From the NCBI RefSeq assembly GCF_036588685.1, contig NC_086373.1, positions 41,292,001 to 41,356,000 on the forward strand: 64,000 bases of DNA. Direction: 5' to 3'. Both the position numbers and the translations under genes were made by a program. The stretch's first letter is position 1, and each line of letters starts with the position of its first letter. A model generated the notes under the pieces. The model made no database searches. It saw only the letters and a program-made list of their open reading frames with translations, and was not told the origin of the DNA. Origin of the DNA: Mytilus trossulus. Its lineage: Eukaryota. This document shows positions 3,201 to 63,882 of the stretch, one piece after another.

Positions 3201-6200
3201 GATACTATTTATATAACACAATAAGAGTTAAATGTTAAAAAAATAGATACAACATTGAATTGACTGATCACATCAACAAATATTATTAGGTTAAATGTAC
3301 AACATTGGCAGGATGAAAATGTAATGTATACCTGTATCGTGAAGGAAACAAAAGTTCTAAGGTGTATATTTGTATTGCATAAGCCACATTCATGTATAAA
3401 GTAACAACAACAAAAGAATGACGTTACAATGAAAGTTCCTTACCGACGTCCGGAGGACGTCACGCTAAAGTTCGTGGGTTTCTCAACATTCTCCGGGGCC
3501 GCAGAAAGTGTCTCAAATATACTGAATGAACTTTTACGAATAAATGAAATGAAATATTTCTTTTAAAATTAATGTCTGATATAAATTAAATAATTTAAAT
3601 TTACTGTCTGCTATAAAGGTTTTAAGTTGCTTCCTTGAAGATATCCAGTGTAAACTAATTTGACTGTCGCTCCATAGTACACACTTTTTAACGTTCCGTA
3701 AACTTGACATTATATGTGAAGTTATCCGTCCTCCGACTAATGCTGCCATAAGTTCAAGTTGTGGTATTGTTAACTTTTTCAAAGGTGCCACGTCTCGAAA
3801 ATTCAATCTCTGTGCATTTTTTCAAGTCTTGATCGATAGAATGCCACTGCGGTCTAATTTCATCAGGTATTTGTTCGTCCCACCCTAGTTTCTGTGTCCA
3901 TAAATCCTGCAATAGTATCTTGCTACGCACTGTAACTGGGCTTAGAATTCAAAGTGGGTCGTAGATTTTTGACGATCTTCTTAGTATTTCTCGTTTCGTG
4001 ATTTGATTTTCTGGTAGCATAGACTAACACGGTCATCTTTGGGTTTTAAAGCGGTAAGTAATCAACTTTGATGTAGGGTCTGTTGAGTCCTTTAGCCAGA
4101 AAAATCTCGTCATATCTCTGTCTTTCTCGTCTAGCGTGATTTGAAGAAACGCCTTCTCTATATCGGTAACACCAGCATATCTATTCTCTCTAAATCGCAT
4201 CAAAAGTGTTGATATGTCATTTAAGATCGGGGGTTCTTTGCGCAAACAATCATTCAGACTGGGCGTGTCTTGTGATCGACGACAGCTACAGTCATAAACA
4301 ATACGGATGGGTGTCGTAGCGGAATCTTTCTTGACTGAATGGTGAGGAATATAATGCGCATGTTCTGTGCTTGTTGTTGGGTTGTCTATGCGTTCAATAA
4401 ATCCTCTCTTTTCCTGGTCGTTTATAATCTCACCATATTTTCTAAGTAAAAACGGATCGTTGCTGAGTCTTCGTACTACATTTTCTGTTCTTCGTCTAGC
4501 TATGTCGATGTTGGACGGAAGTGGTTTATGTTCGTCTTTCCATGGAAGTTTTGCTGTGTATTTACAAGTATTGGCATCGTACGATATATTTGTAGATATG
4601 AAGTTTTCCAAATATTCTGCGTTTGATTTTTCCTTATTCTGAGGCGTTATTCCTAATGACTCGATTTTCCAGAAGTTTTCTAAATCATATTCCTCTTCTT
4701 TGTGTCTAATTAAAATGTTCATCATTGAAGTAGTTCCTTCTGTTGATTTCTGTGTCGGGCCAGAAAGCAAATACCCTATTCTTGACTTGACTGCAATTGG
4801 ACCGTTGCCTCGTATTATCTTATCTTCAATGAAATCCCAATAATGGTCAGCGCCTATCTATAAATTTACGGAGAACACGTCATGTCCTGAAAGCGGGTGT
4901 GCCAGTATTAATCCGCGCAAGTATGGTAAGTTAGTTGTCTCGGTAGTATGTATCCGTATCGGTGAAGCTATTTCAGGAACAATGAGTATATTCAGCTGTA
5001 TGCGGCTTCCGTCTTCCGTGAGTACAAATATGTCAGCGGTTTTCAAATGGCGTACTGATCCGTTACCTCCTCCAAATCCAGAAATTGATATGGCTTCTGT
5101 TCCGTTTTGTTTTAGTTCTAGTTGCTCCGCTAGACTTTCTGTAATAAATGAGCGCTGAGCCCCTTCGTCGAATAGTATGTTTGCATCCATACTGACTTGC
5201 GCGTTTGAGTGCACCGTAGCTATCGCGGTCTTGAGAAGTACTTGTGAATATGTAGTACAGTGCATTGCTGATGCGGATTCGGCTAAATCTTGCTTATCTG
5301 ATGAAGCGGGTTTATTATCTTTATTGTTATGATTCGAAATACTGTTGCTAGAAAACGAAGACTGACTCTTATTTAAACAAATACTGGTATGATGTTTTCG
5401 TCCACATTGTTTACAAGTTCCTTTAGAGTTACAATCTGTAACTCGGTGGTTGCCAAGACAATTAAAACAAGCTTTCTTTTGTTTAAGGATTTCTAGACGG
5501 TCTTTTTGGTCAACAATTTTCATACATGTATTAGGGCTATGAGACTCACCACAATAAATACATGGTTTCCGCGTGTGAACGGCTACCTCACTTTTCTGTG
5601 GCTTTCTGTTATTGTTATTGTAGTTATTTTTTGTGTCAGTTTTTGCAAGGTATACTGTGCTATGCAATGTTTCATCTGATTCTAAATTAACTCTTTGTCC
5701 GGCTTCTAATATACTTATCTCATTAAATAAGTGTTGTCTGAGTTCATCAAGCGACCACTGTTTTAAACCATGTTCACGGGTAATATTCTCCTTAATTCTA
5801 CTTGGTAATTTGTTGACCATAATAGGTATAAGAAATGCACCATATGATTCCTGACTTTGACCTAGTGATTCTAGTCCTCTTATGAGCGTTTCTTATTTGT
5901 CATAAAATCTGCGGCATGATTGTACTGTACTTTCGGGTGCGGGTAGAGCTAACAAAGTCTGCATGTACGTGTGCGTGATTTTTTGAGTCTGTCCAAATCG
6001 CTGGTGTAATAAATCTATTGCTTTACTGTAGTTTAAATTTATAAGCGTAAAACCCGAAACTGTAGTCAAAGCCTCGTTTTGAAGTAGTGTTTTCAAATAG
6101 TTGAATTTCTGGGCGTCTGTTAATGAGGGATTACTATGCATTGCTGTGTCGTAAGATTCCCAGAATGCTTGCCAATTAAGAATGTTGCCGTCGAATTTAG

Positions 6201-9039
6201 AAAGTTCTAACTTTGGGAATTTGTGAAATTGAGAAAGTTGCTGTTTGACATATGAGGAGCATACATGAATTGTGAATTGAACGATGCTGTTTGGTTTCTA
6301 TTGACATCAAAACTCTGAGCTAAGGGGTTAAGTGAACTATCTGTTACTGGGAGTGAATAGCTACGGGTGGTTGGTTCTAGAAATTTACGCATTTTGCGTA
6401 TTTTTGTCTCTAAAGTTATAGAATACTCATCTGAATCAGAAATTTCCACTTCAAGTTCCTCTTCCGATAATTCACTAATAATTTGATTGTTCAAGTCTTT
6501 GCTCATCAATGATCAAATCCAAAATGGTTGAAACTTCGTCTCTGTCAAATTCTTCTTTAGATGTCACATCGTCAAATCTCCACAAAAGCCTTGTGAGAGC
6601 GCTCCTGTGTCCCGAACGTGTTCCTTTTAACTTTGTTGACATTTTCCAGCAGTCACGGCACCATAATATCGTGAAGGAAACAAAAGTTCTAAGGTGTATG
6701 TTTGTATTGCATAAGCCCCATTCATGTATAAAGTAACAACAACAAAAGAATGACGTTACAATGAAAGTTCCTTACCGACGTCCGGAGGACGTCACGCTAA
6801 AGTTCGTGGGTTTCTCAACAACCTTTCTTGGAGAAGAGTACTATTTCGTCAAATTAATTCCATGGTATTTTGACGACATACACACAGTGATAAACCTATA
6901 TAGAATGGTTGTACTGTATAATGCAGCCGTTAACAACTAAATAGGGTAAATAAAAATAAAAAGCAGTTACTCGCAAAATACTATGATTATTGTTATGAGG
7001 TGAGTACTATGCATACCTTATTTGTATCAGCATTATAGATATATATATATAAAGTAAAACATATATTTTCAGACTTAAGTTATAAAAATGATATGACTTA
7101 AGTTTAGATATCTAAGTTTTTATACACGGGTAGTGATTTGGTCAAGCTAAAAATGGTTAAAATTTACCATTTTAGAAGCTGTCAACAGTTTTTAGATCCC
7201 CTTCACATAAAATGATTAAAGTGTCTATATTTTGAATTAGAACAGATGAAATTTTCCATTATTTTGATATAATTCATCCCGAAAGTACAACATACTGTAA
7301 ACATATTAATGAGGAAGAGCAGGTCGGCACTGGGCTCCAACCATGCGATTGTTCACGTAAACATATTAATGAGGAAGAGCAGGTCGGCACTGGGCTCCAA
7401 CCATGCGATTGGTCACGTAAACATATGTAACGCAGACAAAGTTGCAGAAAAGTAGCAAACAATAGGCTTGGTTGCTAAATAATTCCATTTATTTACTTTT
7501 TCCAGATCACATAAAACAAATTGTGACGTGTTTAAATTGTTATTGTCCAAATAAATAAACTCATTATAGATATCAGGACTAAATTTTGTATATACGCCAG
7601 ACGCGCGGTTCGTCTACAAAAGACTCATCAGTGACGCTTAAATCCAAATAAGTTAAAAAGGTCAAATAAAGTACGAAGTTAAAGAGCATTGAGCTAAAAA
7701 TTTTGCCAAATCCAAGTATACTAGTATTCATAAAGTAACGGGTATTGATCTATGAAACTTAACCGAAATAAACTTATTACAATTAAATTTTATTCTTCTG
7801 GTGTATCCTTTGTGATGACTCTAGTTAAATTCACAAACAAGCGTATACATTAGCCATGGCGTTGTCAGTTTGTTTTAGATTTACGAGTTTGACTGTCCCT
7901 TTGGTGTCTTTCGTCCCTCTTTTATCGGCATAGTTTTCCCATACAAATGTAAAAAAAACAAGTGTTTGATATCGCAATTGCTTGAGAACCTTGTGTTCTC
8001 ATAATATTTTGTTATATTTTTTTGTTATCATAATTTAATAAATTGTGTCAAATATGTACGTTTAATTTAAAGACAATAATATATTGCTTTTTATAATGTT
8101 CAATTTTATTTAAAACATGATTATTTATTCCAACACATGCCTATGTTTCATTTTTGAAATAGAAAGAACTATCGATCATGTTTACATTTACAACATGGTC
8201 CTCCATTACAACATTTTCCTTTTTCGATCCATCCTTCACCAAACGCATCATCACAAGTCAGACCTTTTCGTCCACACGTGCCATTTGAAGCCAGACAATT
8301 CCTAGTAAGTCCTAAAGAGTACAGTTCTTAAATATAATGTGATATAATGAGCTCCAATCTCTGCATTATACAATATTGTACTATGACGTGCTTCTTTCAC
8401 TTAGTGAATAAACCCATGCTCTAAATCCAATAAAATTTGTGTGCACATGCGTATATTGACTACTGCAGAATAATGAGTTTTACCAAATTGGCATGCATTT
8501 AATATATTTCATTAACTGAAAACACTTGAAACACTTAAATGATGCACATGTTGTTACGAATTCATTTATCATGACTGTAATGTGTTGCAATTCTAAATTG
8601 ACATATTTGACCTAGATACGACAACTGTTCAAGCTGGCTGTTCAAAACTCCCCCACTAAAAAATCACGTTGCCAGTCGTTTGCTTGTTTACGAATAAAAA
8701 AGGAAGGTGCACGGAAGAGCCTACACAAACACTATATACACTTAAACACATCGCAAATAGCAATTACCTCACTATCGCTCGGGCAAAATTAATCACGCTT
8801 ATAATGCCAACCCATTTTAAAACTAGGTAAAAACTTTCGTCTTATTCTCAATAGTGAACACGTAAAACAATAACATTTAAAGCAGACAAAATACAGTCAA
8901 AATAATTTGCTTTATTTCTTTAGTGAACACGGGGAGGACAGCACATACCTGTAATGATACATAACGAATACTTACTTCCGCCAGTAGAAACATGAATTAT
9001 GCAGAGGACGATTACAATCAAACAACAACATTTCATCAT
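299..9039 (-). CDS. Secreted defensin-like + C-type lectin domain protein, 3' end outside window. Coding exons (minus): 9039-8976, 8311(or 8326)-8186, 3204-3089, 2178-2091, 403-299
   Basis: Exons have AG/GT ends and compatible phases (1,1,0,1,1). Joined translation: MMKCCCLIVIVLCIIHVSTGG-R-LTRNCLASNGTCGRKGLTCDDAFGEGWIEKGKCCNGGPCCK-L-SCVPCPEGYVELDNQTASRNCYVHAKPDHLYEAWASAL-SICSMTPGAYLWRPNSEAEAKAAFDQFKC-L-NYIWTGANSPDQDGNFVFAVDDGVFNYTNVPFGI. CPxGY..CY..W..A...C...GAxL...E...W(T/I)G..D..G.F is the long-form C-type lectin pattern. The N-terminus is hydrophobic. Confidence 0.8.
865..1805 (-). mobile_element. 3' fragment of a Penelope-like (Naiad-type) retroelement, second family
   Basis: 1640-1805 (minus) translates as RYKDLVLKFSCSCTKLISNDIAPPLFYGNVV*RARKLRNNPDKLIDPLNQL, matching the C-terminus of the 31024-31803 ORF. 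A degenerate SECIS-like hairpin (~1400-1462) and an interspersed terminal repeat follow. Confidence 0.65.
3335..3488 (-). repeat. 3' LTR of BEL/Pao element 1
   Basis: Direct repeat of 6667-6820. On the minus strand it is preceded by the PPT-position sequence GCGGCCCCGGAGAA. Confidence 0.93.
3534..6642 (-). pseudogene. Disrupted BEL/Pao gag-pol (gag, aspartic protease, partial RT, partial RNase H)
   Basis: ATG at 6642 (MSTKLKGTRSGHR). ORF pieces 6207-6509, 5893-6141, 4858-5820, 4033-4770 and 3534-3806 are colinear with the polyprotein at 42257-47718. Confidence 0.88.
6667..6820 (-). repeat. 5' LTR of BEL/Pao element 1
   Basis: Direct repeat of 3335-3488, adjacent to the tRNA-His PBS. Confidence 0.93.
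7297..7426. repeat. 60-bp tandem duplication (2.2 copies)
   Basis: gtaaacatattaatgaggaagagcaggtcggcactgggctccaaccatgcgattg(t/g)tcac occurs at 7297 and 7357. Confidence 0.9.
7555..7710 (-). mobile_element. Hammerhead-ribozyme-containing interspersed repeat (retrozyme-like), degenerate
   Basis: Minus strand 7594-7637: gcgtca-CTGATGA-gtct tttgt agac-GAAC-cgcgcg-TC-tggcgt. This is a minimal type I hammerhead with GAAA changed to GAAC. Confidence 0.75.
8186..8311 (-). CDS. Exon encoding a beta-defensin/big-defensin-like Cys module (C-x6-C-x6-C-x13-CC-x4-CC)
   Basis: Acceptor tctttag| at 8312-8313, with an in-frame alternative at 8327-8328. The donor gtaaac at 8185 is weak, with an alternative 6 nt earlier. 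Phase 1/1 fits both neighbouring exons. Confidence 0.7.
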
Positions 9040-20862: not shown

Positions 20863-22130
20863 TTATGTGTAACCATTGACGCGAACACATTTATTGCATC
20901 CATTTACGTTTTGACAATCCTCATTGAAGTTGCATTGTTTCCTTAAAAAACAAGTGTCGACACAGCTTTTTGGGAAAATTCGATGAACTGAACCACCAGA
21001 TACAATACGGTCAAATGAATCACCTTGGATGATACGACCTGCTGAATCGCCTCGATTAACACGGCCTACCGAACCGCCTGGAATAAGATTATGTACTGAG
21101 CCGCCTGGAATGATACTATCTCCTTTGCCGGCTAGGGTAATACGATCTAATGAACCGCTATGAATAATACGATCTAATGAACCTCTTCGAATAATACTAT
21201 CTCGATTACCGCCTAGGGCAATACGATCTACTGAACCGCCTGGCAGAATGTGGTCCAATTGGGAGTTATCAACCATTCTTTGGCAAAATCTTCTGCAATC
21301 TTGTCTTCCTGTCAATCTACAACTTCTTAAGCATCCCGATGAGACTGTATTACCAGGAAGTATTGAGTCTATTGGTACACGATCAAGTGTTCCAATGACT
21401 TCAACAGCTCTACAAAAACTATTACATCCTACGGTTTTGCAGAAGTATCCTAGTCCACAACTTCTGTCACTTAAGCATTGTTTATCACATTTCGGCTTCA
21501 TTGAGTATTCTGTAATATAAAAAATAGAAATTGTTATTTTATTGAAAATTTCATTAAATGTAAAATGTCGAAATTTAAGAGGAATGTTTTTCTTTCTTTC
21601 ACTCGGTTTTCGTGTTTTTTTTATTTCTTGAATGTTCACCGTTATTATGAACTGGATGTTTGACTAGTTATATAAACATTATGAAAGAAATGTTGACCAT
21701 TCCTTTTAGTGAAATTTTACGTTTAAATATCATACCCAGAATCATGCAGTATATTTGAGTTATTCACTACTTCTAATTTGAAGTTGTCTCATTGACATTC
21801 TGTGAGATATCACTTTTTCATGTAGACATATTGCTTAAAGAAAAGTTTATTTGCAGTACTTTTTTCGACCTTATTCGAAAGTTTTCCACGATTCCGTTAT
21901 TTTTCTTTGATTTTTTTCTGGCTTCACCTCTGATATCATACTTGATAAACACTGTACACATGAGAACACTTTGTTCGTATTAAGTTATAAATGAGATAAT
22001 TTTTGGCTTTTTGAACTGTGGACTACAAAGCGAATCATAATTACTAATATTCTATATTTTATATAAAATACAAACCTGCAAAAACACAGGAAACAAATCC
22101 TAGAAAAATCAAAACAGCTTTTCCCTCCAT
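20863..22130 (-). CDS. Cluster gene 1: secreted Cys-capped Gly/Ser/Arg/Ile-repeat protein, 233 aa. Coding exons 22130-22076 and 21509-20863
   Basis: Signal exon MEGKAVLIFLGFVSCVFA-G|gtttgt. Acceptor ttacag|AATACTCA gives EYSMKPKC... The frame is intact to VRVNGYT*. AATAAA lies at ~20757-20762 (minus). Four paralogues are in the window. Confidence 0.9.
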
Positions 22131-27716: not shown

Positions 27717-29162
27717 ATGGAGGGAAAAGCTGTTGTGATATTTTTAGGATGTATTTCATGTGTTTTTGCAGGTATGTATCCCTCTTCGTTTCATATGCAA
27801 ACTATATTTGATCATTTTGATAATAATATATATTCAAAAGAATGTAATTAAGCAGTTATAATTCCGAAGAAAAAATTTAAAAAAAAATCGACAAACTCAT
27901 ACGTATTTTTTAAAGTACGAACAAACCATAAACAATATTCCTTCATTAATTCCAAGAGGTATTCTTTAGAAAAAATTGCCAATCGCCGTATAACAACTTC
28001 TCACTCTTTGTAAAGTGGTCAAGACCATCCAAAGACTAAATTTGCTTTCCTTTTTCGTGTTTTTATGAGATATTCCATACGTTCACACAATACTTCTTCA
28101 CAATAACGCACACAAAGTTATATGATTCTTTATTCTCTCCACAATGTTCTAAACATAATTCGGGTACACCCCATAATGAAATCACATTTTGTTCATGAAA
28201 TTCTTTGTATTTTTGATAAAATCAGTATGACACCATTGGTAATTTGAATTAGACAAACCTTATAATTGCAATAACCACAAATAGTGATATAAGTGTTTTA
28301 TGATCATCTGTCATTTTTGGTTAAAAAAACTTTTTTTAAAATATTTATGCATATAAAGCGTATTTAAACCTTTAACAGGAACGTTGAGACCAGAATTCAT
28401 CTGCACTCTATGAAATTATTACAAACAATAAAAAATAGCAACATATAATATCTAAATCAAATAATTTTCATTTACATAGAAAAAAATAGAGATAAAAATG
28501 AAAAGCAGTCTTATCTCATTATAAACATTATTTTATATCATCATTTTTAATTTTTAAAATTTATTATTACAGCAGGTTATCCAGTCACAAAAAAGTGTGC
28601 TAATGAATGTTCGAGTCGTTTAGATTGTGGAAGAGGATACTATTGCCAAACTATAGGATGCAATAGAAGGTGCACATCTCTAAACTTACCAATTGGCAAT
28701 GCTCATATTGACCAAGTAGTTTCACAAGACACATTCGCATTGGAATGCGAACTAAGATGTAGACAACAAGGAAGGGTAGGTTGTAGACGACTTTGTCAAC
28801 AAAATGGAGATCAGTTTCTAGTAGACCAAAGATTCCCAGTTGATTCCTTGGACCATTCCTTTCAAGGGTCCTCAGTAGACCGTGCCTTTCCAGGGGATTC
28901 ATTAGGAAGTATTCGTTCAGGCAGTCTTGTTGATCGTATCAGGTCAATCGGTCCAGTAGACCGTACCTTTCCAGGGGCTTCATTAGGCAGTATTCGTACA
29001 GGCAGTCTTGTTGATCGTATCAGGTCAATCGGTCCAGTTGAGTCAATTCATCATAAAGGCTGCGAAAACATGTGTATTTCTAGGAATCAATGCAAACTCA
29101 ACGAGGATTGTGTCAGCAGAGATGGATGTAACGTATGTGTTCGCGTCAGTTCATATGCGTAG
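27717..29162 (+). CDS. Cluster gene 2: secreted Cys-capped repeat protein, 213-214 aa. Coding exons 27717-27771 and 28573(or 28576)-29162
   Basis: MEGKAVVIFLGCISCVFA-G|gtatgt. Acceptor tacagcag, then GYPVTKKCANECSSRLDCGRGYYCQTIGCNRRC..., in frame with ORF 28740-29162, ending VRVSSYA*. Confidence 0.9.
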
Positions 29163-29631
29163 TGGGACAAATAAACACAGACTACATAGTGCATACCATT
29201 GTAAAATATATCAATGTATCTTCTTTTTTATAATTTTATAATAAAAAAAATAATAGATGTAGAGCTGTATTCATCTTTTTTTCGGTAGAAAGCTTTAGAA
29301 ACTTAAATACATGAAATGTTGATTTTTTTTATAATTTGCTGGAACTAAATAGAACTAAAATGAAATGCGGATGTTTTTAAAGCTGTCACATTAACAAACT
29401 GAGGTATTTTGTCAACTCGAAATCTACACCAACGAAACTATTAGGAAAAACTTAAAATATTCCGTTTCATGTGTAAATCAAAATCTAAAAAAGGAATATA
29501 TTTATTATCAAAGAAAATTTCGGGCCAATTATACCAATATTTCGGACCTAATTTCTATTTCAAAAAACAACGGCAGACATTATCTGTTAACAAAACTCTG
29601 TTCGTTACCGGTTAACAAGATAAATGAAATT

Positions 29632-31803
29632 TTGGAGGATTGCAACACAATTTCATATAGCAGTCCTAAGTATGAAATTGTTCAAATTATTATGGCATAT
29701 TGTTATTCTAAATTATTTCCCAAAATTGATCGCCCTGAAGATCATAAAAAACATTTTATTAAAATTAAGTATGTCAATAAAGGCTTTGATTTTGTAAATA
29801 TTGCCGGTATATTTAACGACCATTCTGTTAAAGAACAAATTCCTGGATATTTTGACAATACTGAGCTACCTCTTATTTGTTATATTTACAAGAAATTTAC
29901 CCGGAAATTTGTGTTTAATTATAGTCAATTGTGTAAAGATGTTAATATCAGTGAAAATACACCTACGTCATGTAATTGCAGTAGTTCCGAATATATTTAT
30001 GGACCCATTTCCCATCTTATAACAGGAGATATTAATATCGTTCAAGACCGAGAGTTAAAATTATTTCCCAGTAAAGGACCTAAATATCGTCCCCCGTCAA
30101 TTATTAATTGGAATGAGTGTCGTAATATCATCCACGACTCACTCCATACTTACTGTATGAAATGGATAAAACGGGAAAAAGCTGACAAAAAATCTTTGGA
30201 CTCTTTTTTTAATTCAGTAATGAAGATAGTTGATATACGTATTCAACATTTTAAAGAATATTTTACTATTATCAATAACCACAATAAACCTATTACTCGT
30301 ATCAAACATAAACTAAAAGAACTAGCCAAGGAATTTGTTTTTGTCCCGGCCGATAAAGCTGCTAATAATATTATTATTGTTTGACGTAAATTTTACATTG
30401 AGGTTCTGAAAAAAGAAATCACCAATTCACCAACATTCCAACTGACTCCATTTTCAGAAAACGAATCTGTAACAAACATAAACTTTTAGCCACAATGAAA
30501 GTCCCAACTATGTATTGGCTTCCGAAGCTACACAAAACCCCTTACAAATATAGATTTATTTCGTCTTCAAGCCATTGTTCAACTACTAAATTGTCTATTC
30601 TTCTTACCAGCACACTTGGTACAATTAAAAACCTTATAATAAATTGTTCAAATAAGGCCTTCGAAAATGGTGGAATAAATTACTTTTGGAGTGTCAAGAA
30701 CTCGTTGGAAGTACTTGATAAATTGCATGCTTATATTGGTGATTTTGAATCTGTTCAAAGTTTTGATTTTTCTACCCTGTATACCACATTTCTTCACATT
30801 CTCATTAAGAAAAAGTTCACACACCTAATTAAATGGGCATTCCAAAAATCAGAATGTGAATATATATGTTCAAACTCTTTAAGGTCATTTTTTAGTAGCA
30901 ATACACAAAAAAAACTATGTTAATTGGACATGCTTTGATACTATATATGCCCTTGAATTTTTACTAGATAACATTTTTGTTCGCTTTGGGGATTCCGAAT
31001 ATCGTCAGATTATCGGAATTCCAATGGGGACTAACTGTGCACCACTTATTGCGGACCTCTTTTTGTATTGTTATGAGTTACAATTTATGACAAAAATAAG
31101 CAAATACCCATCAAAACAACATCTGATAAACAAATTTAATAATACTTTTAGATATTTGGATGATATTTTGGCTCTCAATAATGACGACTTCAGTATGTAT
31201 ATTAATGAAATTTATCCTGCTGAACTTACTTTAAATAAAGCTAATACTGACAATGACCACTGCCCTTTCCTCGATCTTGATATCTATATCACTAACGGAA
31301 AGCTGAATACTAAAATTTATGATAAAAGGGATGATTTTTCATTTCCTATCGTTGATTATCCGTTTTTAGATGGTGACGTTTCCCTGTCACCATCTTATGG
31401 TGTTTATATATCTCAACTTGTACGATTCGCTCGTGTATGTAACAATGTTTTAGATTTTAATGAGAGAAATTTATGTATTACTGAAAAATTATTACACCAG
31501 GGTTTTCGATATCACAAACTAGTCAAAACGTTTACTAAATTTTATCATCGGTATAAAGACATCATTAGTAAATATAGCTCAACATGCAGACTTCTTATAC
31601 GTTCAGGTATTTCACATCCAATTTTTTATGACAATATTCTTTATAAAGCACAAAGGTGTCAGTATTCACCTCAGAAACTTACAAAACCTTTGAATAGACT
31701 TATTAAGAAGGGATATAATTACGATACTGTTGTCAAGTCATTAAAGATTGCATATTTTGGCGTTAATATTGAGTCACTGATAAGGTCTTTGCGTCGGAAC
31801 TAA
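29632..31803 (+). pseudogene. Penelope-like reverse transcriptase, frameshifted (~30465-30494, ~30910). TGA at 30382-30384 is a likely Sec codon
   Basis: Three colinear ORFs: 29632-30384, 30495-30923 and 31024-31803. The frame continues past the TGA as RKFYIEVLKKEI. Confidence 0.85.
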
Positions 31804-36904: not shown

Positions 36905-38050
36905 TTATGTGTAGCTATTAACTCGAACACATTTATTACATCCATTTACGTTTTGACAATCCTCATTGAAGTTGCATTGTTTCCTTAAAAAACAAGTGTC
37001 GACACAGACTTTTGGGAAAATTCCATCAACTGAACCGCCAGGCACAATACGGCCTAATGAACTGCCTTGAATAATACGACGTGCTGAATCTCCTCGAATA
37101 ACACGGTCTACCGAACTGCCTGAAATAATACGATCTAATGAACCTCTTCGGATAATACTTTCTCCTTTACCGCCTAGGGTAATACGATCTACTGAACCGC
37201 CTGGAATAAGATTATGTACCGAACCGCCTGGAATAATACGGTGTACTGAACTGCCTGGGATGATATGATCTAATGAACTTCCTCGAATAATACTATCTCT
37301 TCTACCGCCTAGGGTAATACGATCTACTGAACCTCCTGGCAGAATGTGATCTAATCGGGAATTTTCAACCATTCTTTGACAAAATCTTCTGCAATCTTGT
37401 CTTCCTGTCAATCGACAACTTCTTAAGCATCCCGATGAGACTGAATTGCCAGAATTATATTCTATAATATGGAAGATTGGAAATAGTTAAAATGTTAAAA
37501 TGAAGTGTAAAATGCCGAGTTTTTGGGAGAAAGAGGTCTTTGTAGTGTTTGTAATATTTTTTATCAATATTATGACTTGAATTTGTCTGAATATTTGCAC
37601 ATAAATATGAAAGAATGGTGGCACATTACTTTTAATAAACTATTACGTTTAACATCTAAGACTGAATTATGCAGTTTATGTGAGTTATTTTCTTTAATTT
37701 GCTGTCTTAATAAGAAATATTGTCTTCATTATTAACATCTATCGCCAAAAAAGTGTTTTTATTAAGTTTTTGCTGTACTTTCTTCGGCCTGTTTTGAAAG
37801 TTTTTTTCACCCGTTTCAGGTATTTTTTTTTAAATTTCTGGCTTCACCTCAGATATCATACTTGATAAAAACTGTAAAAATGAGAATTTTTTTTCCGCAT
37901 TAAGTAACAAATGAGAATATTTTCGGCTTAATGAACTTTGGACTACAAGGAGAGTCATCATTACTATAATTTTTTATTTTATATAAAATACAAACCTGCA
38001 AAAATACAGGAAACAAATCCAAGAAAAATCAAAACAGCTTTTCTCTCCAT
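36905..38050 (-). CDS. Cluster gene 3: secreted repeat protein lacking the N-terminal 6-Cys module, 203 aa. Coding exons 38050-37996 and 37461-36905
   Basis: MERKAVLIFLGFVSCIFA-G|gtttgt. Acceptor attatag|AATATAAT gives EYNSGNSVSSGCLRSCRLTGRQDCRRFC..., intact to VRVNSYT*. Closest paralogue of gene 1. Confidence 0.88.
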
Positions 38051-40044: not shown

Positions 40045-40232
40045 NNNNNNNNNNNNNNNNNNNNNNNNNNNNNNNNNNNNNNNNNNNNNNNNNNNNNNNN
40101 NNNNNNNNNNNNNNNNNNNNNNNNNNNNNNNNNNNNNNNNNNNNNNNNNNNNNNNNNNNNNNNNNNNNNNNNNNNNNNNNNNNNNNNNNNNNNNNNNNNN
40201 NNNNNNNNNNNNNNNNNNNNNNNNNNNNNNNN
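40045..40232. other. Assembly gap (188 N)
   Basis: Run of N. Confidence 1.
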
Positions 40233-41969: not shown

Positions 41970-42141
41970 TATCTTAGAGTGGTATAATCAGACTTTTTAG
42001 GCACAATAAGAAATACTAGCTGTTTCTACTTGTATTGATTCTAAATTCCATTTGCACAAAAATCTCAACGTCATAAGTAGCATGACGTTACAATACATAC
42101 ATAGCGGTACCGCGAACGTCTAATGAACACAGTCCTGAACA
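41970..42141 (-). repeat. 3' LTR of BEL/Pao element 2
   Basis: Direct repeat of 47736-47907. Confidence 0.96.
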
Positions 42142-42256: not shown

Positions 42257-45200
42257 TTATGTTTTACGGAACGGTTGAATCCAACTTTTGATTTTCTCCT
42301 TGGCATCAGTTTTTGCTTTTCTAGTTGAAGTAATAGTATTGTCACTGGAATCACACGGACTATCTGTTGATAAGAGTTCAAGTGGATATAGCTTACTTAT
42401 TGGTCTAGATGTCGTGCCTTTTTTAGTGCGTAAAATGGCAGTTCTACAAAGTCCATCTCTCCCATAAACTAACTTAACGATAATCGCTATATTCCACACT
42501 GTCCTTGGGGTATCATCATGAATCTGTACAATGTCGCCCACTTTAATGATTTGAGTGTTATTTCCGGTGTTTCTATGTTGTTCCCTAAGTGAAGTGAGAT
42601 ATTCTCGTCGCCATCTGTTCCAGAAGTCGTGAATAATGCGTTTTTGAACACTAGATTGTCTATTTGCTGTGTAATGTGTTAAGTTTTGTAAGTTCTCCTC
42701 ACTGCTGAAATTAATTGTTCCTGAATACGGTAAAGTTTTAACCCGTCTTCCATAGAGAAGATGAGACGGTGTAAGCGGTTCATCATCGGTAAGGTCCGTT
42801 GATACGTGGGTTAACGGACGATCATTTAATATAGCCTCTATCTCGATCACAATTGTCTCTAGCACTCTAAAAGTAACTAGTGCTCGTCCTAACACTTTCT
42901 TTATGCAATTCTTGGTCAAGCCGATCAATCGTTCCCACCAACCACCATACCATGGGGCACGTTTCGGAATAAATTTCCACTGAGTTCCATATATGTTGAG
43001 TTGTTCCTGAATAGAAGCAGATTTTGTAAGCATTTCAATTTCCTTCGCTGCTGCGGTATATGTTGTACAAATGTCAGACATCATGATTTTTGGTAACGAT
43101 TTGCGGCTGGTGAATCTCCTAAACGCTAGAATGAATGTTTGTTCTGTAAGGTCTTCGATGATTTCCAAATGCACAGCTCTAGTGTTAGCGCAGGTGAATA
43201 GACAAATATATGCTTTACTAGTACTGTTGCTTTTTGTTCTAACATGCAATGCTCCTGTGAAGTCGACACCGGTTACGGTAAACGGTGGTGAATCATTAAG
43301 TCTGTCGGACGGCAGTGGTGGTGGGTCGGGTGTATGATAGGGTCTTCCTGTAATTTTACGGCAAGTAACGCAATTACGGAGTATTGATTTAACACATTGT
43401 CGAATCGACGGAATCCAGTAAGACTGGCGAATAAATGTCACTGTACTTTCTAATCCAGAGTGAAAATTCTTTGCGTGTGCATCCATCACAATTAATTTAC
43501 AAAATCTGTCTTTGTTCGGTATTAGTACTGGAAATTTAGCTGATTCATCAATAGGTGCATTGTTTATTCTCCCACCACAACGGATAATGTTCATTTTATC
43601 CATGTACAATCAAAGTTGCTTCACTAGCGCATTTTTCTCTGATTTGTTGTTTAAACTCTCAATAACATCCGGGTATTAACGCAGTTGCGAATCTCGAATC
43701 CATGAAGTCGAAGCAGTCTGAATTTCATTGACACTAAGATTTCCTGTTAGTTTGTCATTATTTCTACAGTTGTTTATGAATCGGTACATGTATGCTGTTA
43801 TACGCAAAAGTTTTTGGTATGAGCTGTAGCGTTGTATATCCATAATTTTACTTATTCCTTCATAAAATCTTATTTTCTGTTGCGGTTCACTAGTTGATTG
43901 CCCTTGCTCAATTGTAGTGCTAAGAATGTGCGATTCTTTATTCTTCCACTGTGGCCAGTTTGATTTGTCAGTGAGCCATTCGGGTCCTTTCATCCAAAGA
44001 TCCAATTCTAGGAATTTGGTTGCAGTTACTCCTCTCGATAGTATATCTTCCGGATTTGAATATGTCGGACAGTACTTCCATGTGTATTCTTGAGTAATTT
44101 CGTTAATTTCCTTCACTCGATTACTAACGAAAACGGGTAATTGTTTCTCAGTAGTAAGCCAACTTAAAGTTATCTGACTGTCACTCCATAATGTGACGCT
44201 TGTATCCTCCAAGTGCGATTTCAAATGCTTGACGAGTCTTGCGCCTATCAAAGCTGCACTGAGTTCTAACTTCGGAATTGTTAACTGTTTCAGAGGTGTC
44301 ACTCGATTCTTTGACATGATAAGCACGGTTTCTTTTCCACTGACTAAATATGCGCATGCTCCATAGGCTTTCAAGCTTGCATCCGTAAACACATGTAATT
44401 CTACATTGTCTGATTTTTCTTTGAAATACGGTCTATTAATTTTCAAATGTGAACATTCATTAATATCTTGTAGTACACACTTCCATTCTGTTGTAATTTC
44501 AGATGTAAGAGGTTCATCCCAATTTAATCCTTTCTCCCACAAAGTCTGCATAAGCATCTTACTACGCACAGTAACTGGACCAATAAGTCCGAGTGGGTCA
44601 TATACTTTCGATGATTGTCTTAAAATCTCTCGTTTTGTCATACGTGTATCTTCAATATCGGTGTATTCCGGTTTGGCGAAAGTAAGTGTGTCGTTACAAG
44701 TGTTCCATCTCAATCCAAGCACTTTTATGAGTTCATCTTTGTCTAATACGCTGTGTGAATTTGCGCGGTCTCGCAAAAGTTGAGAATTTGAAGCCCATGA
44801 GCGCAAGTTAAATCCTGCTCTAGTGAATAAGTCTCTTGATGTATCAAAATATTTCAGTAATGCACTCTCTGTAGGAAAACTCGACAGTATATTATCAACA
44901 TACAAATCGTTCTTTAAAGTGTCAGTATATTCACAGCGGTTCTCTCTCAAGTGTTTTTGTAGAACGGAATTCAGTATGAATGGCGATGAAGTGGCTCCAA
45001 ATAATACAGACTTAAATCGGTAAGTTGATAGTGGAGTTGATGGGTCTGTTGGTGTATCGAACCAAAAGAAACGTGTGACATCTCTATCCTGTGTCTCTAG
45101 TCCCACGTTCAAGAACGCCTTCTCTATATCAGTAGTAACGGCAAATTGGTGTAAACGAAATCTTAAAAGTATGCCGACTAAGTCATTTAAATTGGGTGGA

Positions 45201-47718
45201 GTGGTCATCAAACAATCATTTAGACTAGACGATTCTGGTGTTGCTTTACAACTGCAGTCGAATACGACCCTGATTGGTGTTGTAGTTGAATCTTTTCTCA
45301 CAGCATGATGCGGAATATAGTGTACTTTGCTCTTTTCGTCGGCCTCATTAGTAGTATGCACTTTCTATGAAGCCCCTTTTCTCCTGCTCAGCCATTATTT
45401 CTCCATATTTTTCCAATAGTTTGGGTTCTTTGCTAAGTCTTCTTACTACACTTTCCGTCCTTCGTTGTGCAATGGCTTTATTTGTCGGTAACGTAGGGTG
45501 ATCCTCTTTCCATGGTAACGTTACAAAATATCTGTTGTCATGGTAACGAATTTGTTTCTCTTCATAAGTCTTTTGAATATCCATCTGTTCTTCTAACTTT
45601 GTGGTGTCAATTTTCTCGGTGACTCTATTTTCCAAAATTTCTCCAAGTCGTACTCATCGGTTTTTGTTGCGATCATCACGTTCATCATCGAAGCTCTCTT
45701 GTATCCATCTGTGTCAGAGTTGTGTGAATGTAGCGTTCCAGACAACAGGTATCCGATCTTTGATTGAACAGCTGTCGGTCCTTCGCCTCGGATAATATCA
45801 TTCTGAACAATTGACCAGAAGTAATCAGCTCCAATTAGAATAGAAATTTCAAAGTTTTCATCTGCTGTTACTGGGTGAGCTAATTTGATTCCTGACAAAT
45901 ATGTAAGTTTTGCTGCTTGACGTACATAGGTTCTCATCGGTGCTGCGATCTCTGGAACGATCAAGACTCGAATCGGCAGTTTACCATCTGTAGTTATGAG
46001 ATATACAAATCCTGTTCCTAAATGGCAAATTTTAGTACTATTTGCATTGTCTCCAAATCCGGATAGGTTAACGCTTTAAGTTCCAGTAGGTTTGAGTTTC
46101 AATTTCTCGGCTAATTCCTCTGTGATAAATGAGCGCTGTGCGCCTTCGTCAAACAATATTTTTGCATCAAGTATTTCATGTTCTACACTTACTGGGTTAA
46201 TTGCTGTCTTCAAAAGTTCACGATCTGTCGATTGCGAGTGTAAAATAGTGTCTGATTCCTCCGCGTTGTGTTGAATTGTGCCTACGGTTATATCCCCTGT
46301 TGGTTTGTTGTCTTCATTTCTTTTAACATTGTCTTTGCAAATGCTGGTGTGATGACGTTTGTGACACTTGTTGCAAGTTTTTGTAGATTTACATGCGGAT
46401 AAGCTATGGTGTCCTAGACAGTTAAAGCATAAACGATCTTTTTTCACGATTGACATCCGGCCATTGTAATCAGATACTTTAGTGCAATTAACAGACGAGT
46501 GTGGCTCCTTACAGTACGCACAGAGTGGTTTGGGTTTAGTGTTACTTGAGTTTGTATTCTTGTTACCTCTATTTCGATTACTATAATTTGTATTTGTCAG
46601 AAAGGCGGCGGTAGCTGTAGGGGGTTGTAACTGTTCTGAAGTTTTGCCTGCATCCATAATATAAAGTTCATCGAAAATTCCACGACGTAATTCATTCAGT
46701 TGTAAATCTGTAGATCTATATTGTCTGGCAAGATTTCTGCGGATTTCACCGGGTAGTTTGTTCATAATGATGGGCACTAAAAACGCTCCGTATGTGTCTT
46801 CACTTTGACCTAATGACTCCAAACCTCTAATGTGTATCCCAATTTCATCGTAGTAGTCTTTCATGCTAGATATCGTGTATTTAGGGGCTGGTATATCAAC
46901 TAGTGCTTGCATATCCTTCTGTCTTATTACATGCGATTGTCCATATCTGTCTTGCAGTAAAGAAATAGCTTTCTCATAATTTGCATGTGTAAGAGCAAAC
47001 CCTGTGACGGTTTTCAATGCTTCATCATGGAGTAGTGACTTCAAATAATTAAATTTCTGAACATTTCCAAGAGTAGTGTTTTCGTGAACGGATATCTCGT
47101 ATGAATCCCAAATGACTGCCACTGCATAATATTACCATCAAAGGTAGGAAGATTCAATTTGGGCAACTTGTTGTACTCATTTAATCTAGTGTTACTACGT
47201 GAAAACTGAGTTTCCGGTACACGGAAGTTTGAATTACATGTATTCTGTTTATTGTATATCTCGGGTTGAGCATAACTTTGTTGATCATGAGCAGGTTGAG
47301 CATAACTTGGTTGACCATGAGCGGGTTGAGCATCAGTGGGCTGAGCAGAGGCGGGTTGAGCAGAGGCGGAATGTGAAGGGTCGCTATAACTGACGAAATC
47401 TTTTGCATTTGTACTGAGTGTGGATGTATTGACAAGAATGAGCTTTTGTATTTGCGTTATTTTCCCATCTAATGTGTAAGCATACTCATCTGAATCGACG
47501 ATCTCGGCTTCTACTTCTCCTTCATCAAGATTTTCTAGAATGTCCTCATTAAGTTTTTGTAGTGTCTCTTGTTTCTTCAACAGATTGTTCACAATTTTAG
47601 TTAACTCTTCAGTGTTCACGGGCTCATCTTCGTCGTTTCGGATGTCCTCAAATTTCTTCAAAAGTCGGGAAATAACGCTTCTGTGTCCTGCACGTATAGA
47701 ACGTAGTTTGGAACTCAT
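42257..47718 (-). pseudogene. BEL/Pao gag-pol polyprotein with 3 frameshifts and 3 in-frame stops
   Basis: ORFs 47041-47727, 46076-47122, 45593-45964, 45348-45635, 43676-45361 and 42257-43609 are consecutive parts of one polyprotein. Confidence 0.93.
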
Positions 47719-47735
47719 CCTGGTCACGGCACCAA

Positions 47736-47907
47736 TATCTTAGAGTGGTATAATCAGACTTTTTAGGCACAATAAGAAATACTTGCTGTTTCTACTTGTA
47801 TTGATTCTAAATTCCATTTGCACAAAAATCTCAACGTCATAAGTAGCATGACGTTACAATACATACATAGCGGTACCGCGAACGTCTAATGAACACAGTC
47901 CTGAACA
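47736..47907 (-). repeat. 5' LTR of BEL/Pao element 2
   Basis: Direct repeat of 41970-42141, adjacent to the PBS. Confidence 0.96.
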
Positions 47908-49144: not shown

Positions 49145-49214
49145 ACGTCACACCTTCACTGAACCATTTATTTCCTCTAGTACAGTATATTTTCCCTTGT
49201 AGAGTGTATATAAG
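49145..49214 (+). promoter_or_regulatory. Family core promoter of gene 4. Non-coding exon 1 ends at 49280
   Basis: ACGTCACACcttcactGAACCatTTATTTCCTCTaGTACA...TATATAAG. Donor aag|gtaatt at 49281. Confidence 0.75.
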
Positions 49215-49619: not shown

Positions 49620-50030
49620 TAATAAGGTTTTTCTACCTAAGTTATAGATTTACTTACTGTAAATTCAGAAATTATTGCGAGGTTTTTATTATTGCGAATA
49701 ATGCGACTGAGTTGTAAACGCAATAATTAAAACTCGCATTCTGTAATATTTCAACTGAATTAAGCATGACTTTTCTCAAAATCGTAAAAATTAAAATCGC
49801 ATTCAAGTGTAAAATGACAAAATCGCAATAATAAATGCACGCAATAATTTCTGAATTTACAGTAACTGTATTTGGCAAAACTTTAAGGAATTTTTGTCCT
49901 CAAAAATCTTCAACTTCGTACTTTATTTGGCCTTTTAACTTTTTGGATTCGAGCGTCACTGATGAGTCTTTTGTACGAAAGTATGGCGAAGATACAAACT
50001 TTAATTCTGGAATCGATGATGAGTTTATTC
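49620..50030 (+). mobile_element. Hammerhead-repeat copy in intron 1 of gene 4, interrupted by a MITE
   Basis: gagcgtcaCTGATGAgtcttttgtacGAAAgtatggcg at 49951-49988. The flanks match 7555-7710 and 48680-48850. Confidence 0.7.
49655..49864. mobile_element. MITE with TA target duplication
   Basis: TA-ctgtaaattcagaaattattgcg ... cgcaataatttctgaatttacag-TA, perfect 23-bp TIRs. Confidence 0.88.
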
Positions 50031-50129
50031 ATAAATAATACATATCAGTAGAAACATCATTCAATATAAGTAAAAAATTCAAACCATACGAATTAAGTGA
50101 CATTTATTTATATATTTATTCCAGAAACA

Positions 50130-51467
50130 ATGGAAGGAAAGGCTGTTATTATTTTCTTTGGATTTATATCATGCGCTGTAGCTGGTATGTATCTTATTTT
50201 ATTACATATTCAATCATTAGTTTATTGTTTTGATGAGAGAAATTTGACAAAGAAATAAATTTTAAGCAAGCATTATTCTACAAAAATACACACAAAATAT
50301 TTGAATATCGATATACCACGATTATTTAAACAATAGACCAAATACATGTATACCTAAATCAACATTCCAACAACGCTACTTCGTTTCACCTTTTTGACGA
50401 CTCATTCTACGTATACCTTCACTCATAAGAAATATATTAGAAAACATAGGAATTTAAAATCATTTAAAGAATAAAAATTGTGGTAATCAAAACTATACGG
50501 ATTTTTTTTTTATTTGGAAAAAGTACATAGAATTTAGAGTCCAACACATTATTTATTGTTTCATTGTTAACAATATTAAATTAGCAGTCGTTTTTCATTA
50601 ATCTAATTCGCCTTTTCCACGAGTTCAAAACATATTTCACCCTCACAAGGAACGCTGAAACCACAAAATCACATTTACTCAATGCAATAATTAAAGCAGA
50701 AATTAAATTTGTAACAAACAGTGTGGATATCGAAAGTATTGAAACCAAATAATATTTATGATCTAAGTTACCAATGATATTTCATATTTAAACATTTCTA
50801 AATGAAATTTATTATTACAGTATATTCAGTCAAAAAACCAGTTTGTGAAATTGAATGCTCGAGTCATTCAGAATGTCTAGATGGATACAGTTGTCAAACA
50901 GAAGGATGTGATCGTATTTGCAGACCTAGGAGAGTGATTTTATCAAATTCAGCAATTAGATCCGACATTATTTCATCCGGATGCGTTCAGAGATGTATGG
51001 ACCGAGGAGAACTAGGTTGCAGAAGTCTTTGTCAGCGAAGTTTAGATTCATTGTCAGGAGGCCAAATCATTCCTGGTGGTTTCTTAGACAGTGGATTCCA
51101 AGATGCTTTAGTAGATCCTATTCGGTTAGATAGTCTTGTTAGACATACCTTGCCAGTAGGTGATTCTATTCGGCCAGGTAGTCTTGTTAGACGTATCTCG
51201 CCAGTAGGAGGTTCTATTCGTTCAGATAGTCTTGTTAGACATAACTCGCCAGTAGGTGATTCTATTCTGTTAGATAGTCGTCTTGGACGTATGTCACAAG
51301 TAGGTTCTATACGGTCAGGAAGTCTTCTGGGGCGTATCTCGCAAGTTGATTCAATTTTACATAAAGACTGTCAAAATACATGCATTTCACGAGGCTGCAA
51401 CTTTAACGAGGAATGTGTAACAAGAGATGGATGTTCTGTATGTGTTCGTGCCAAGACCTACGCATAA
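50130..51467 (+). CDS. Cluster gene 4: secreted Cys-capped repeat protein, 233 aa. Coding exons 50130-50184 and 50821-51467
   Basis: MEGKAVIIFFGFISCAVA-G|gtatgt. Acceptor ttacag| at 50820 gives VYSVKKPVCEIECSSHSEC..., ending VRAKTYA*. AATAAA at ~51560. Confidence 0.92.
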
Positions 51468-62347: not shown

Positions 62348-63882
62348 ATGGAAGGGAAAGCTGTTATCATTTTCTTTGGATTTATAGCATGTGCTTTTGC
62401 TGGTATGTATCTTATAACGTTATATATTTTTGTTATTGTTTAAATGCTGATTTATACAAGGAATTAAGTAGTTATGAGCAAACATTATCAAAACATTACA
62501 GTCCAAATATTTGAAAACAAACAATCCAAAAATTCTTAAAACAAATGATTAGATACATGAATGTTGAAATTAACATGCAAGCAATGATACATCGTTTCAA
62601 CACCTGGTTTATACGTTTACCATGTTTCTGAAGGAAAACAATCAGGGAAAAAAACAAATTTGAAATCATTTAAGAATAAAAATTGAAGCATGCAAAACAC
62701 AAATGACGGATACATAACACAAGAATACCTGATATTTTGTATTTAAAGCACAAACATGCTTAACGATCGGTGTAAGTAAATTAGAACAACGGTTTTTGAC
62801 CTTGAAAAATAGTTAATAGAACAAAGATTCCGACAAAAACAAACTTTTTTGATCTATTATTTAGAAAATACAAAAATAAACATTCATTTATTACGAATTT
62901 ATTTTACATATTTCTATGAGTAAAAGGCATTTTTCACTCTCGCTACTTACGATGAAACCATGAAAGTACTCTATGCAATGTTTATATCAGTAATACAATC
63001 TATAATAAACACTTTGTTTGTAAAAATCATCGAAACCTAATTATATTTATAATCTGATCGACGTCACTGTTGGGTCTTATGTAGATGAAATGTTCGTCCG
63101 ACTAATGAAATAAATAGCCTGGTATCTCTTATTTTTTCGATTGATAATTCATATTTCAACATTTATGATTAAAATTTATTATTACAGTATATTCACCCAA
63201 AGGCGGGAAAGCTTGTGAAATTGAATGCTCGAGTCATTCAGAATGTCCAGAAGGTCACAGTTGTCAAACTGAAGGATGTGATCGTATGTGCAGACCTAGA
63301 AGAGTAATTTTATCAAATTCAGCAGTTAGATCAGACATATTTTCATCTGGATGTCTTCAGAGATGTATGGACCGAGGTAACCTAGGTTGCAGAAGTCTGT
63401 GTCAGCGTAGTGAAGATTCATTATCGGGAGGCCAAATCAATCCTGGCAGATCCTTAGACAGTAGATTCCAAGATGCTTTAGTAGATTCTATTCGGTCAGA
63501 TAGTCTTGTTAGACATACCTCGTCAGTAGGTGATTCTATTCGGTCAGGTAGTCTTGTTAAACATATGTCGCCAGTAGGTGGTTCTATTCTGTCAGATAGT
63601 CGTCTTGGACGTATCTCACAAGTAGGTGATTCTATTCGGTCAGGTAGTGTTGGAAGACATATCTCGCCAGTAGGTTCTATAGGGTCAGGTAGTCTTCTTG
63701 GACGTATATCTCCAGTAGGTTCTATTCGGTCAGATGGTTTAGTTGGACGTATCTCGCATGTTGATTCAATTTTAAATAAAGGCTGTCAAAATACATGCAT
63801 TTCACGAGGCTGCAACTTTAACGAGGAATGTGTAACACGAGGTGGATGTTCTGTATGTGTTCGTGCCAAGACGTACGCATAA
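62348..63882 (+). CDS. Cluster gene 5: secreted Cys-capped repeat protein, 249 aa. Coding exons 62348-62402 and 63188-63882
   Basis: MEGKAVIIFFGFIACAFA-G|gtatgt. Acceptor ttacag| gives VYSPKGGKACEIECSSHSECPEGHSCQTEGCDRMC..., in frame with ORF 63286-63882, ending VRAKTYA*. AATAAA at ~63975. Confidence 0.92.

Follow-up and report, generated by a model that had tools for sequence, protein, structure and literature searches.

Why do the predicted secreted proteins of one mussel gene cluster carry cysteine modules that look like WAP domains lacking two cysteines? We analysed 64,000 nucleotides of Mytilus trossulus (contig NC_086373.1, positions 41,292,001 to 41,356,000; hereafter the window), an AT-rich stretch. 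An initial annotation of it proposed that the six-cysteine modules are WAP domains that lost exactly one disulfide pair. Are they, how widespread is such a module, and what might it do?

Gene organization

The window contains five tandem three-exon paralogs, genes 1-5 (Table 1), with a family layout of signal peptide, six-cysteine module A, four-cysteine module B, a Gly/Ser/Arg/Ile repeat linker and six-cysteine module C. In all five, a 55-nt signal-peptide exon is followed by a phase-1 intron and then by a single exon holding the entire mature protein. Genes 2, 4 and 5 in addition have a first exon that is non-coding and a TATA-like box. Genes 1, 4 and 5 correspond to RefSeq proteins, and gene 2 has a close relative, P0031, in M. 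galloprovincialis. Gene 3 is a duplicate of gene 1 from which module A was removed by a clean in-frame deletion of 144 nt; its frame is still open and its signal exon is kept, and protein searches returned no protein matching it. Modules are thus singly dispensable, A being absent from gene 3 and B from M. galloprovincialis P0025; module C is retained in all five genes of the window.

Contigs of two public runs, X2 and X10, whose RNA nature is presumed and whose metadata name no tissue, join exons 1 and 2 of gene 4 (49266/49274 to 50118/50129). Intron 1 is thereby spanned in both runs and the second intron in X2, where the joint between exons 2 and 3 bears the letters of a paralog.

Table 1. 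Coordinates of features in the window, counted from its first letter
Feature	Position	Strand	Remarks
Gene 1 (LOC134707869, P0024)	20863-22130	-	signal exon 22076-22130, exon 3 21509-20863
Gene 1 modules	A 21412-21489, B 21283-21333, C 20887-20964	-	
Gene 2	27717-29162	+	signal exon 27717-27771, exon 3 28573-29162
Gene 2 modules	A 28596-28673, B 28746-28796, C 29061-29138	+	
Gene 3	36905-38050	-	B 37379-37429, C 36929-37006; without module A
Gene 4 (LOC134707892, XP_063424086.1, P0001)	50130-51467	+	protein identical to RefSeq
Gene 4 TATA-like box and non-coding exon 1	box 49207-49213; exon 1 ends 49280	+	GT donor next; from sequence
Gene 4 exon 2	50125-50184	+	ATG 50130, signal peptide, phase-1 donor; P0001 N-terminus
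Gene 4 exon 3, coding part	50821-51467	+	complete mature protein
Gene 4 module A	50844-50921	+	six Cys, without canonical C1 and C6
Gene 4 module B	50982-51032	+	C-x3-C-x7-C-x3-C, predicted helical hairpin
Gene 4 repeat linker	51033-51368	+	112 aa, 48-bp DNA repeat, predicted disordered
Gene 4 module C	51369-51443	+	six Cys, C7 moved by one
Gene 5 (LOC134707894, P0004)	62348-63882	+	signal exon 62348-62402, exon 3 63188-63882
Gene 5 modules	A 63214-63291, B 63352-63402, C 63784-63858	+	
Gene 4 intron 1, repeat	49650-49975		high-copy
Assembly gap	40045-40232		188 N
BEL/Pao LTR retrotransposon ORFs, in pieces	42257-47739	-	DUF1759, Peptidase_A17, RVT_1, integrase; between genes 3 and 4
Direct repeats flanking the BEL/Pao element	41970-42141, 47736-47907		172 bp, 99.4% identical
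Second, shorter Pao-like element	3335-6820		DUF1758/DUF1759 matches
Direct repeats of the shorter element	3335-3488, 6667-6820		154 bp, 98.7%
Three long ORFs directly after gene 2	29395-31803	+	
Two-exon candidate gene	8169-9039	-	signal-peptide exon from 9039 to GT donor near 8975; exon 2 ~8309-8169

Module A in the register of the WAP core

The canonical WAP domain reads C1..C2-x3-C3-x5-C4-x5-C5C6-xxG-C7-x3-C8, with cysteines paired 1-6, 2-7, 3-5 and 4-8. Modules A and C have six cysteines each instead of the eight of the WAP core (PF00095). Module A is found in genes 1, 2, 4 and 5, and a column comparison with 18 eight-cysteine cores places all four copies in the register C2-x3-C3-x5-C4-x5-C5-x-x-x-G-C7-x3-C8. 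This bears out the reading that the modules keep the C2-C8 spacing and the Gly-Cys pair and are devoid of C1 and C6. The peptides quoted for genes 4, 1 and 2 are present as well, although the coordinates given for the gene 4 copy, 50845-50922, were one base off. The module-A spacing, C-x3-C-x5-C-x5-C-x4-C-x3-C, occurs four times in the six frames of the window and never in 60 shuffled windows; as the four occurrences are paralogs, they count as one event. Could C1 be encoded elsewhere? None of the upstream exons supplies it, the sole cysteine before module A being in the signal peptide.

Relatives that carry complete WAP domains

The Pfam WAP profile gave a sub-threshold match in all nine rows of module A, over profile positions 10-40 of 41 (best E 0.0023), and no other Pfam family was matched by more than three of the nine. 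The HMM search proposed by the initial annotation points to WAP in every row, but no single module reaches the gathering cut-off (13.0-14.9 bits for genes 1, 2 and 4, against 20.8). Neither the whole window proteins nor module C gave a Pfam WAP match, and P0030, a relative with four modules, exceeds the cut-off as a whole protein (27.5 bits). Since Pfam misses the single-copy module, many such genes stay "uncharacterized". A search of the ESM Atlas produced one low match for the whole protein (0.75, in a WAP/Dickkopf_N cluster), which we treat as a lead only, and none for module A.

When 1.84 billion representative proteins were searched with a module-A profile, 35 matches were obtained, 33 of them new. 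Several low-ranking matches (e.g. P0036, P0039 and P0047) are unrelated cysteine-repeat proteins that align over the first four cysteines only. Pfam WAP is detected at E≤0.01 in 20 of the 33, and eight of the 33 combine, within one chain, a complete eight-cysteine WAP domain with copies that have neither C1 nor C6. These linking proteins are P0027 (one complete domain and 11 reduced copies), P0032 (one and eight), P0049, P0035, P0042, P0050, P0052 and P0055. Chains that carry both forms attest to the common descent of the module and the eight-cysteine WAP domain. The column of C6 is occupied by Cys in 18 of 18 eight-cysteine cores and mostly by Val (30) or Ile (12) in 67 distinct six-cysteine modules from outside the family, and the glycine before C7 is kept in all 18 cores and in 66 of the 67 modules. 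The non-cysteine residues of module A also fit the profile of these non-family modules (shuffle p≤0.0004 in four of four genes), as does module C (p 0.0001-0.044 in five of five). A Dumpy DPY reading of module A, based on one of nine rows (E 0.021), was dropped because of the glycine immediately before C7 and the linking proteins.

The linking proteins of Mytilus itself (CAG2239387.1, XP_063437527.1 and XP_052082407.1) resemble the window family in having the six-cysteine module, in 8-11 copies, low-complexity spacers and a signal peptide. CAG2239387.1 is P0027 of M. edulis, in which one full WAP domain is joined to eleven six-cysteine modules; it is encoded on a contig of 829,047 bp. Its accession directly precedes those of family members CAG2239388-91 and the contig size is the same, which suggests that the genes are adjacent. 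XP_063437527.1 lies on the chromosome-length record that also bears the genes of the window.

Is module A instead an inhibitor cystine knot of the potato carboxypeptidase inhibitor kind, its likeness to WAP reflecting a shared disulfide-directed hairpin core? Such a knottin is paired 1-4, 2-5 and 3-6. CarbpepA_inh is the best Pfam match for module A of gene 4 (E 0.0016), and of the seven best sequence matches among solved structures six are cysteine-knot peptides or carboxypeptidase inhibitors, with the seventh (WCI) aligning likewise; the module-A profile matches best the carboxypeptidase-inhibitor knottin 8se8 (E 0.00055, positions 1-25 of 35). However, the knottin matches reach the first four cysteines only, in two of nine rows, and the best PF02977 score of 18.7 bits is below the cut-off of 25, with alignments that end after the fourth cysteine. 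The last two cysteines and the glycine follow the WAP register in the 67 relatives, and eight- and six-cysteine copies share chains. A knottin origin is therefore very improbable.

Predicted structure

The AlphaFold (AF2) model gives modules A and C a pLDDT of 76-81 (76-79 for A) and a two-strand hairpin each; module B, at ~60, has two helices, and the linker scores ~25. As in the WAP core, the predicted hairpin places C5 and C8 opposite each other. For module A, omwaprin fills the top Foldseek rows (E 0.56, probability 0.98), below significance. All four VIA-align entries with Z≥2 for module A (residues 4-40) are omwaprin, SLPI (two entries) and 6atu, which we take to be elafin, with weak scores (Z 2.1-2.6, rmsd 2.0-2.8, 34-36 residues aligned). 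Knottin and EGF chains are present among Foldseek's 57 rows but outside this Z≥2 list, an absence that we do not count as evidence. In the wide fold search, the whole model drew mostly helical structures that matched module B but are unrelated to it (Z≤2.8).

Module C folded alone has a pLDDT of 73, and omwaprin is again the first Foldseek row (E 1.1). Its nine VIA-align rows comprise SLPI, omwaprin, nawaprin and 6atu, four spider or scorpion toxins and one unrelated structure. Here the knottin toxins tie with WAP, SLPI reaching Z 3.2 (rmsd 3.9 over 36) and the knottin-type toxin 8f2f Z 3.1 (rmsd 1.6 over 30). Fold scores as a whole are below significance, with no Foldseek E≤0.001 and all Z≤3.2. 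The structural check proposed at the outset gives WAP structures as the best matches for module A, but with weak scores and with knottins level for module C. The fold matches for module A agree with the sequence evidence, none being significant alone, and for module A we predict a preserved WAP hairpin fold that three disulfides hold together.

Sub-threshold Pfam matches in nine of nine rows, the linking proteins and WAP structures as the best fold matches together support the original proposal that the module derives from WAP and has lost the C1/C6 pair. We are highly confident that module A descends from an eight-cysteine WAP domain whose C1-C6 disulfide was lost, and that its six cysteines would pair 1-5, 2-4 and 3-6, as the canonical WAP pairing predicts. 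Structurally, it is very probably a reduced WAP domain.

Distribution of six-cysteine WAP modules

The modules share with the WAP core (elafin, SLPI, omwaprin) the C2-C8 spacing, the glycine before C7 and secretion. They differ in having six cysteines, without C1 and its loop, C6 or the contact loop, and in standing beside a repeat spacer. Is this reduction peculiar to mussels, as the initial annotation implied? It is not. Modules without C1 and C6 are found in predicted "WFDC3-like" proteins of Muntiacus, Bos (yak), Vicugna, dolphins, Equus, Apteryx and Dromaius, which have neither a repeat spacer nor a module B. P0035, P0087, P0048, P0052, P0055, P0042 and P0050 are such proteins, with one to four of the modules, mostly beside a full WAP domain; no description of this gene of mammals and birds was found in the literature searched. 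Furthermore, publications describe secreted Trichuris and Trichinella proteins whose WAP-type domains, arranged in tandem, have exactly six cysteines (PMC5012510; Tm-WAP, PMC6130879), and the mussel modules likewise hold exactly six each. The accessible text of PMC5012510 calls the change a trichocephalid adaptation and its function unknown. These whipworm repeats are ~50 aa long, and from the accessible text they resemble the mussel modules in cysteine count. The six-cysteine module is a widespread variant of a known domain and not a mussel invention.

Bird six-cysteine modules are closer to amniote eight-cysteine domains (identity 0.41-0.42) than to mussel six-cysteine modules (0.23, over 19 columns); mammalian modules are less clear (0.28 versus 0.21). 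This is a hint that suggests separate losses in amniotes and mussels. A tree of the modules, built on 26 columns and lacking support values, is too short for dating the losses or putting them in order.

UniProt already calls some family members "WAP domain-containing protein". The literature searched, which included few subscription journals, contains no paper on the Mytilus family or on a WAP lacking C1 and C6 by name, and the accessible parts of PMC9778506, PMC8859434 and PMC5010889 hold nothing further on the six-cysteine module. The finding brings no new mechanism, and the biological role discussed below is one that we infer. Its value lies in defining a 26-residue, three-disulfide minimal WAP scaffold. 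Moreover, a six-cysteine WAP published as a whipworm peculiarity also exists in mussels, birds and mammals, so that the effect of losing one WAP disulfide can be tested on a small synthetic peptide.

Origin of modules C and B

Module C has the spacing C-x3-C-x4/5-C-x5-C-x5-C-x2-C, in which the distance from C5 to C8 is unchanged and C7 has moved by one residue. The initial annotation took it for an internal duplicate of module A. The two are indeed homologous (hhalign 80.9%), but the duplication is not recent. Each of P0030, P0045, P0121, P0123 and P0125 contains four cysteine modules, of which almost every one shows the regular six-cysteine spacing; these proteins align with the Mytilus family end to end, including a tyrosine at both ends. 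Module A matches module 1 of these relatives best (hhalign 98.8%; modules 2-4 give 89.7-95.5%), and module C matches module 4 (96.9%, against 2-60%). Because A and C match different modules, the duplication is old, and C is an old sister module rather than a recent copy of A. What is new here is the orthology of both modules, C with its shifted C7, to ordinary six-cysteine modules, which the comparison with the four-module relatives shows. Module C is quite likely the same kind of module as A, with C7 slid by one. A sequence search of solved structures gave no match for the module-C profile or for P0125, and the DNA of P0030 was not found in a metagenome scan.

What, then, is module B? It occupies the position of the middle modules, and its alignment to them has a gap of nine residues in which canonical C4 and C5 are lost. 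Column permutation gave p 0.005-0.018 against all four modules, mainly owing to the C-terminal half (12 tests, uncorrected), and p 0.014-0.48 for the N-terminal half. The hhalign values against modules 1-4 are 16-55%, likewise by the C-terminal half, with profile shuffle p 0.046-0.24. Module B is possibly, on this weak support, a WAP module further reduced to four cysteines and predicted to be helical; it could just as well be a helical hairpin of unrelated origin. We regard as doubtful, but worth stating, a stepwise stripping within the cluster, from eight-cysteine WAP to six cysteines (by separate losses in mussels and amniotes) and on to module B, with the nine-residue deletion causing re-pairing and turning the beta-hairpin into a disulfide-stapled helical hairpin. 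The deletion on this path would remove two cysteines that are not partners. If true, module B would be a WAP remnant turned helical, a rare case of a natural, traceable fold switch whose living intermediates are neighbours within one gene cluster.

Proposed role

What would a WAP module without C1 and C6 do? Module A has seven residues before C2, C2 and C3 are three apart, and C1 is absent, so the contact loop of elafin and SLPI is not seen in its sequence and the WAP protease-contact region is missing. The cysteine spacing in the contact region of elafin is longer. WAP protease inhibition depends on the contact region around C2 and on cysteine spacing (PMC9680087, PMC1459147). The missing region would make inhibition unlikely and a secreted matrix or coating role more likely. 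Are the modules nevertheless protease inhibitors that guard byssus or shell matrix from proteolysis? Foot WAP genes of mytilids are classed as proteinase inhibitors, by annotation and not by assay (PMC7971044, PMC5549309), and the linking protein P0027/P0061 retains one full WAP domain. Given the missing C1, the missing or short contact-loop region and a long repeat spacer that inhibition does not need, we consider this function unlikely.

The linker is 88-127 aa long, rich in Ser, Gly, Arg, Ile and Asp (also Leu in gene 4) and free of Cys and Tyr; its length drifts via repeats of 27, 48 and 81 bp. The mature proteins have a pI of 8.4-9.0, the linker has a net charge of 0 to +7, and the gene 4 copy of module A is acidic. 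Two disulfide-locked ends, a disordered spacer and a basic pI would fit a secreted protein that tethers or shields within an extracellular coat. In two other mytilids, WAP-annotated genes that may or may not be orthologous to the window family show foot specificity (Perna viridis, among them pvir_s00884g60 and pvir_s00544g11; PMC7971044) or enrichment in foot and mantle rim (Mytilisepta; PMC5549309). Mussels also have cysteine-rich cuticle proteins, mfp-16 to -19 (PMC7018715). Taken as a whole, a WAP-derived three-disulfide module with a non-inhibitory matrix or coating role is probably the best explanation. Module A likely would act as a compact binding cap, without inhibitory function, at the end of a secreted protein of a matrix or coating. 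More tentatively, the protein could be a dumbbell in which a disordered Gly/Ser/Arg/Ile spacer that varies in length joins two disulfide-locked modules; an outer epithelium (foot or mantle) would secrete it, and it would tether or shield other matrix components rather than block proteases.

Do the proteins instead serve as cationic mucosal defence proteins of the waprin or crustin kind, with tandem expansion as immune diversification? Their basic pI, omwaprin as the closest fold match and a family copy number that differs between Mytilus records would suit such antimicrobials, and the non-inhibitory WAP proteins omwaprin and SWAM are antibacterial (PMC9680087). The linker charge is low, however, and gene 4 has an acidic module A; a crustin whose WAP domain is incomplete was inactive, according to the accessible text of the same source; and the modules of genes 4 and 5 differ little, at few nonsynonymous codons (4/26, 2/17 and 1/25). 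Antimicrobial defence is accordingly an improbable role.

The initial annotation was reminded of the shell proteins perlwapin and lustrin A, which are likewise secreted mollusc proteins with WAP-type domains (PMC5854119, PMC3374290), and the window proteins might modify crystal growth in the shell matrix. Shell proteomes do include WAP domains, and crystal growth is inhibited by perlwapin (PMC5854119); WAP is also enriched in the mantle rim of Mytilisepta (PMC5549309). But perlwapin and lustrin A are described, in the accessible text, as four-disulfide-core proteins isolated from shell, the sequence link to them is one weak Lustrin_cystein match in nine (E 0.051), and the window proteins are basic. 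The window family is not among the WAP proteins of shell matrices in the accessible parts of PMC5854119, PMC3374290 and PMC6641155, and no paper in the literature searched places it in shell. A special tie to perlwapin, lustrin A or the shell is not supported, and a role as crystal-growth modifier is quite unlikely.

Other features of the window

P0029 (CAG2216933.1), an M. edulis gene model in which a chloride-channel fragment is fused to a six-cysteine array, is probably a mis-joined annotation. The two-exon candidate gene at the left of the window would encode a small secreted cysteine-rich peptide with eight cysteines in exon 2; it gave no Pfam match, and its cysteine spacing is presumably defensin-like. 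The three long ORFs after gene 2 resemble fragments of a reverse-transcriptase element, an impression from the sequence, and matched no Pfam family at E≤0.01. Contig depth over the repeat within the first intron of gene 4 is very high in four of four runs. Two Pao-type elements lie in the window, and the near identity of the direct repeats flanking the larger suggests its recent insertion between genes 3 and 4.
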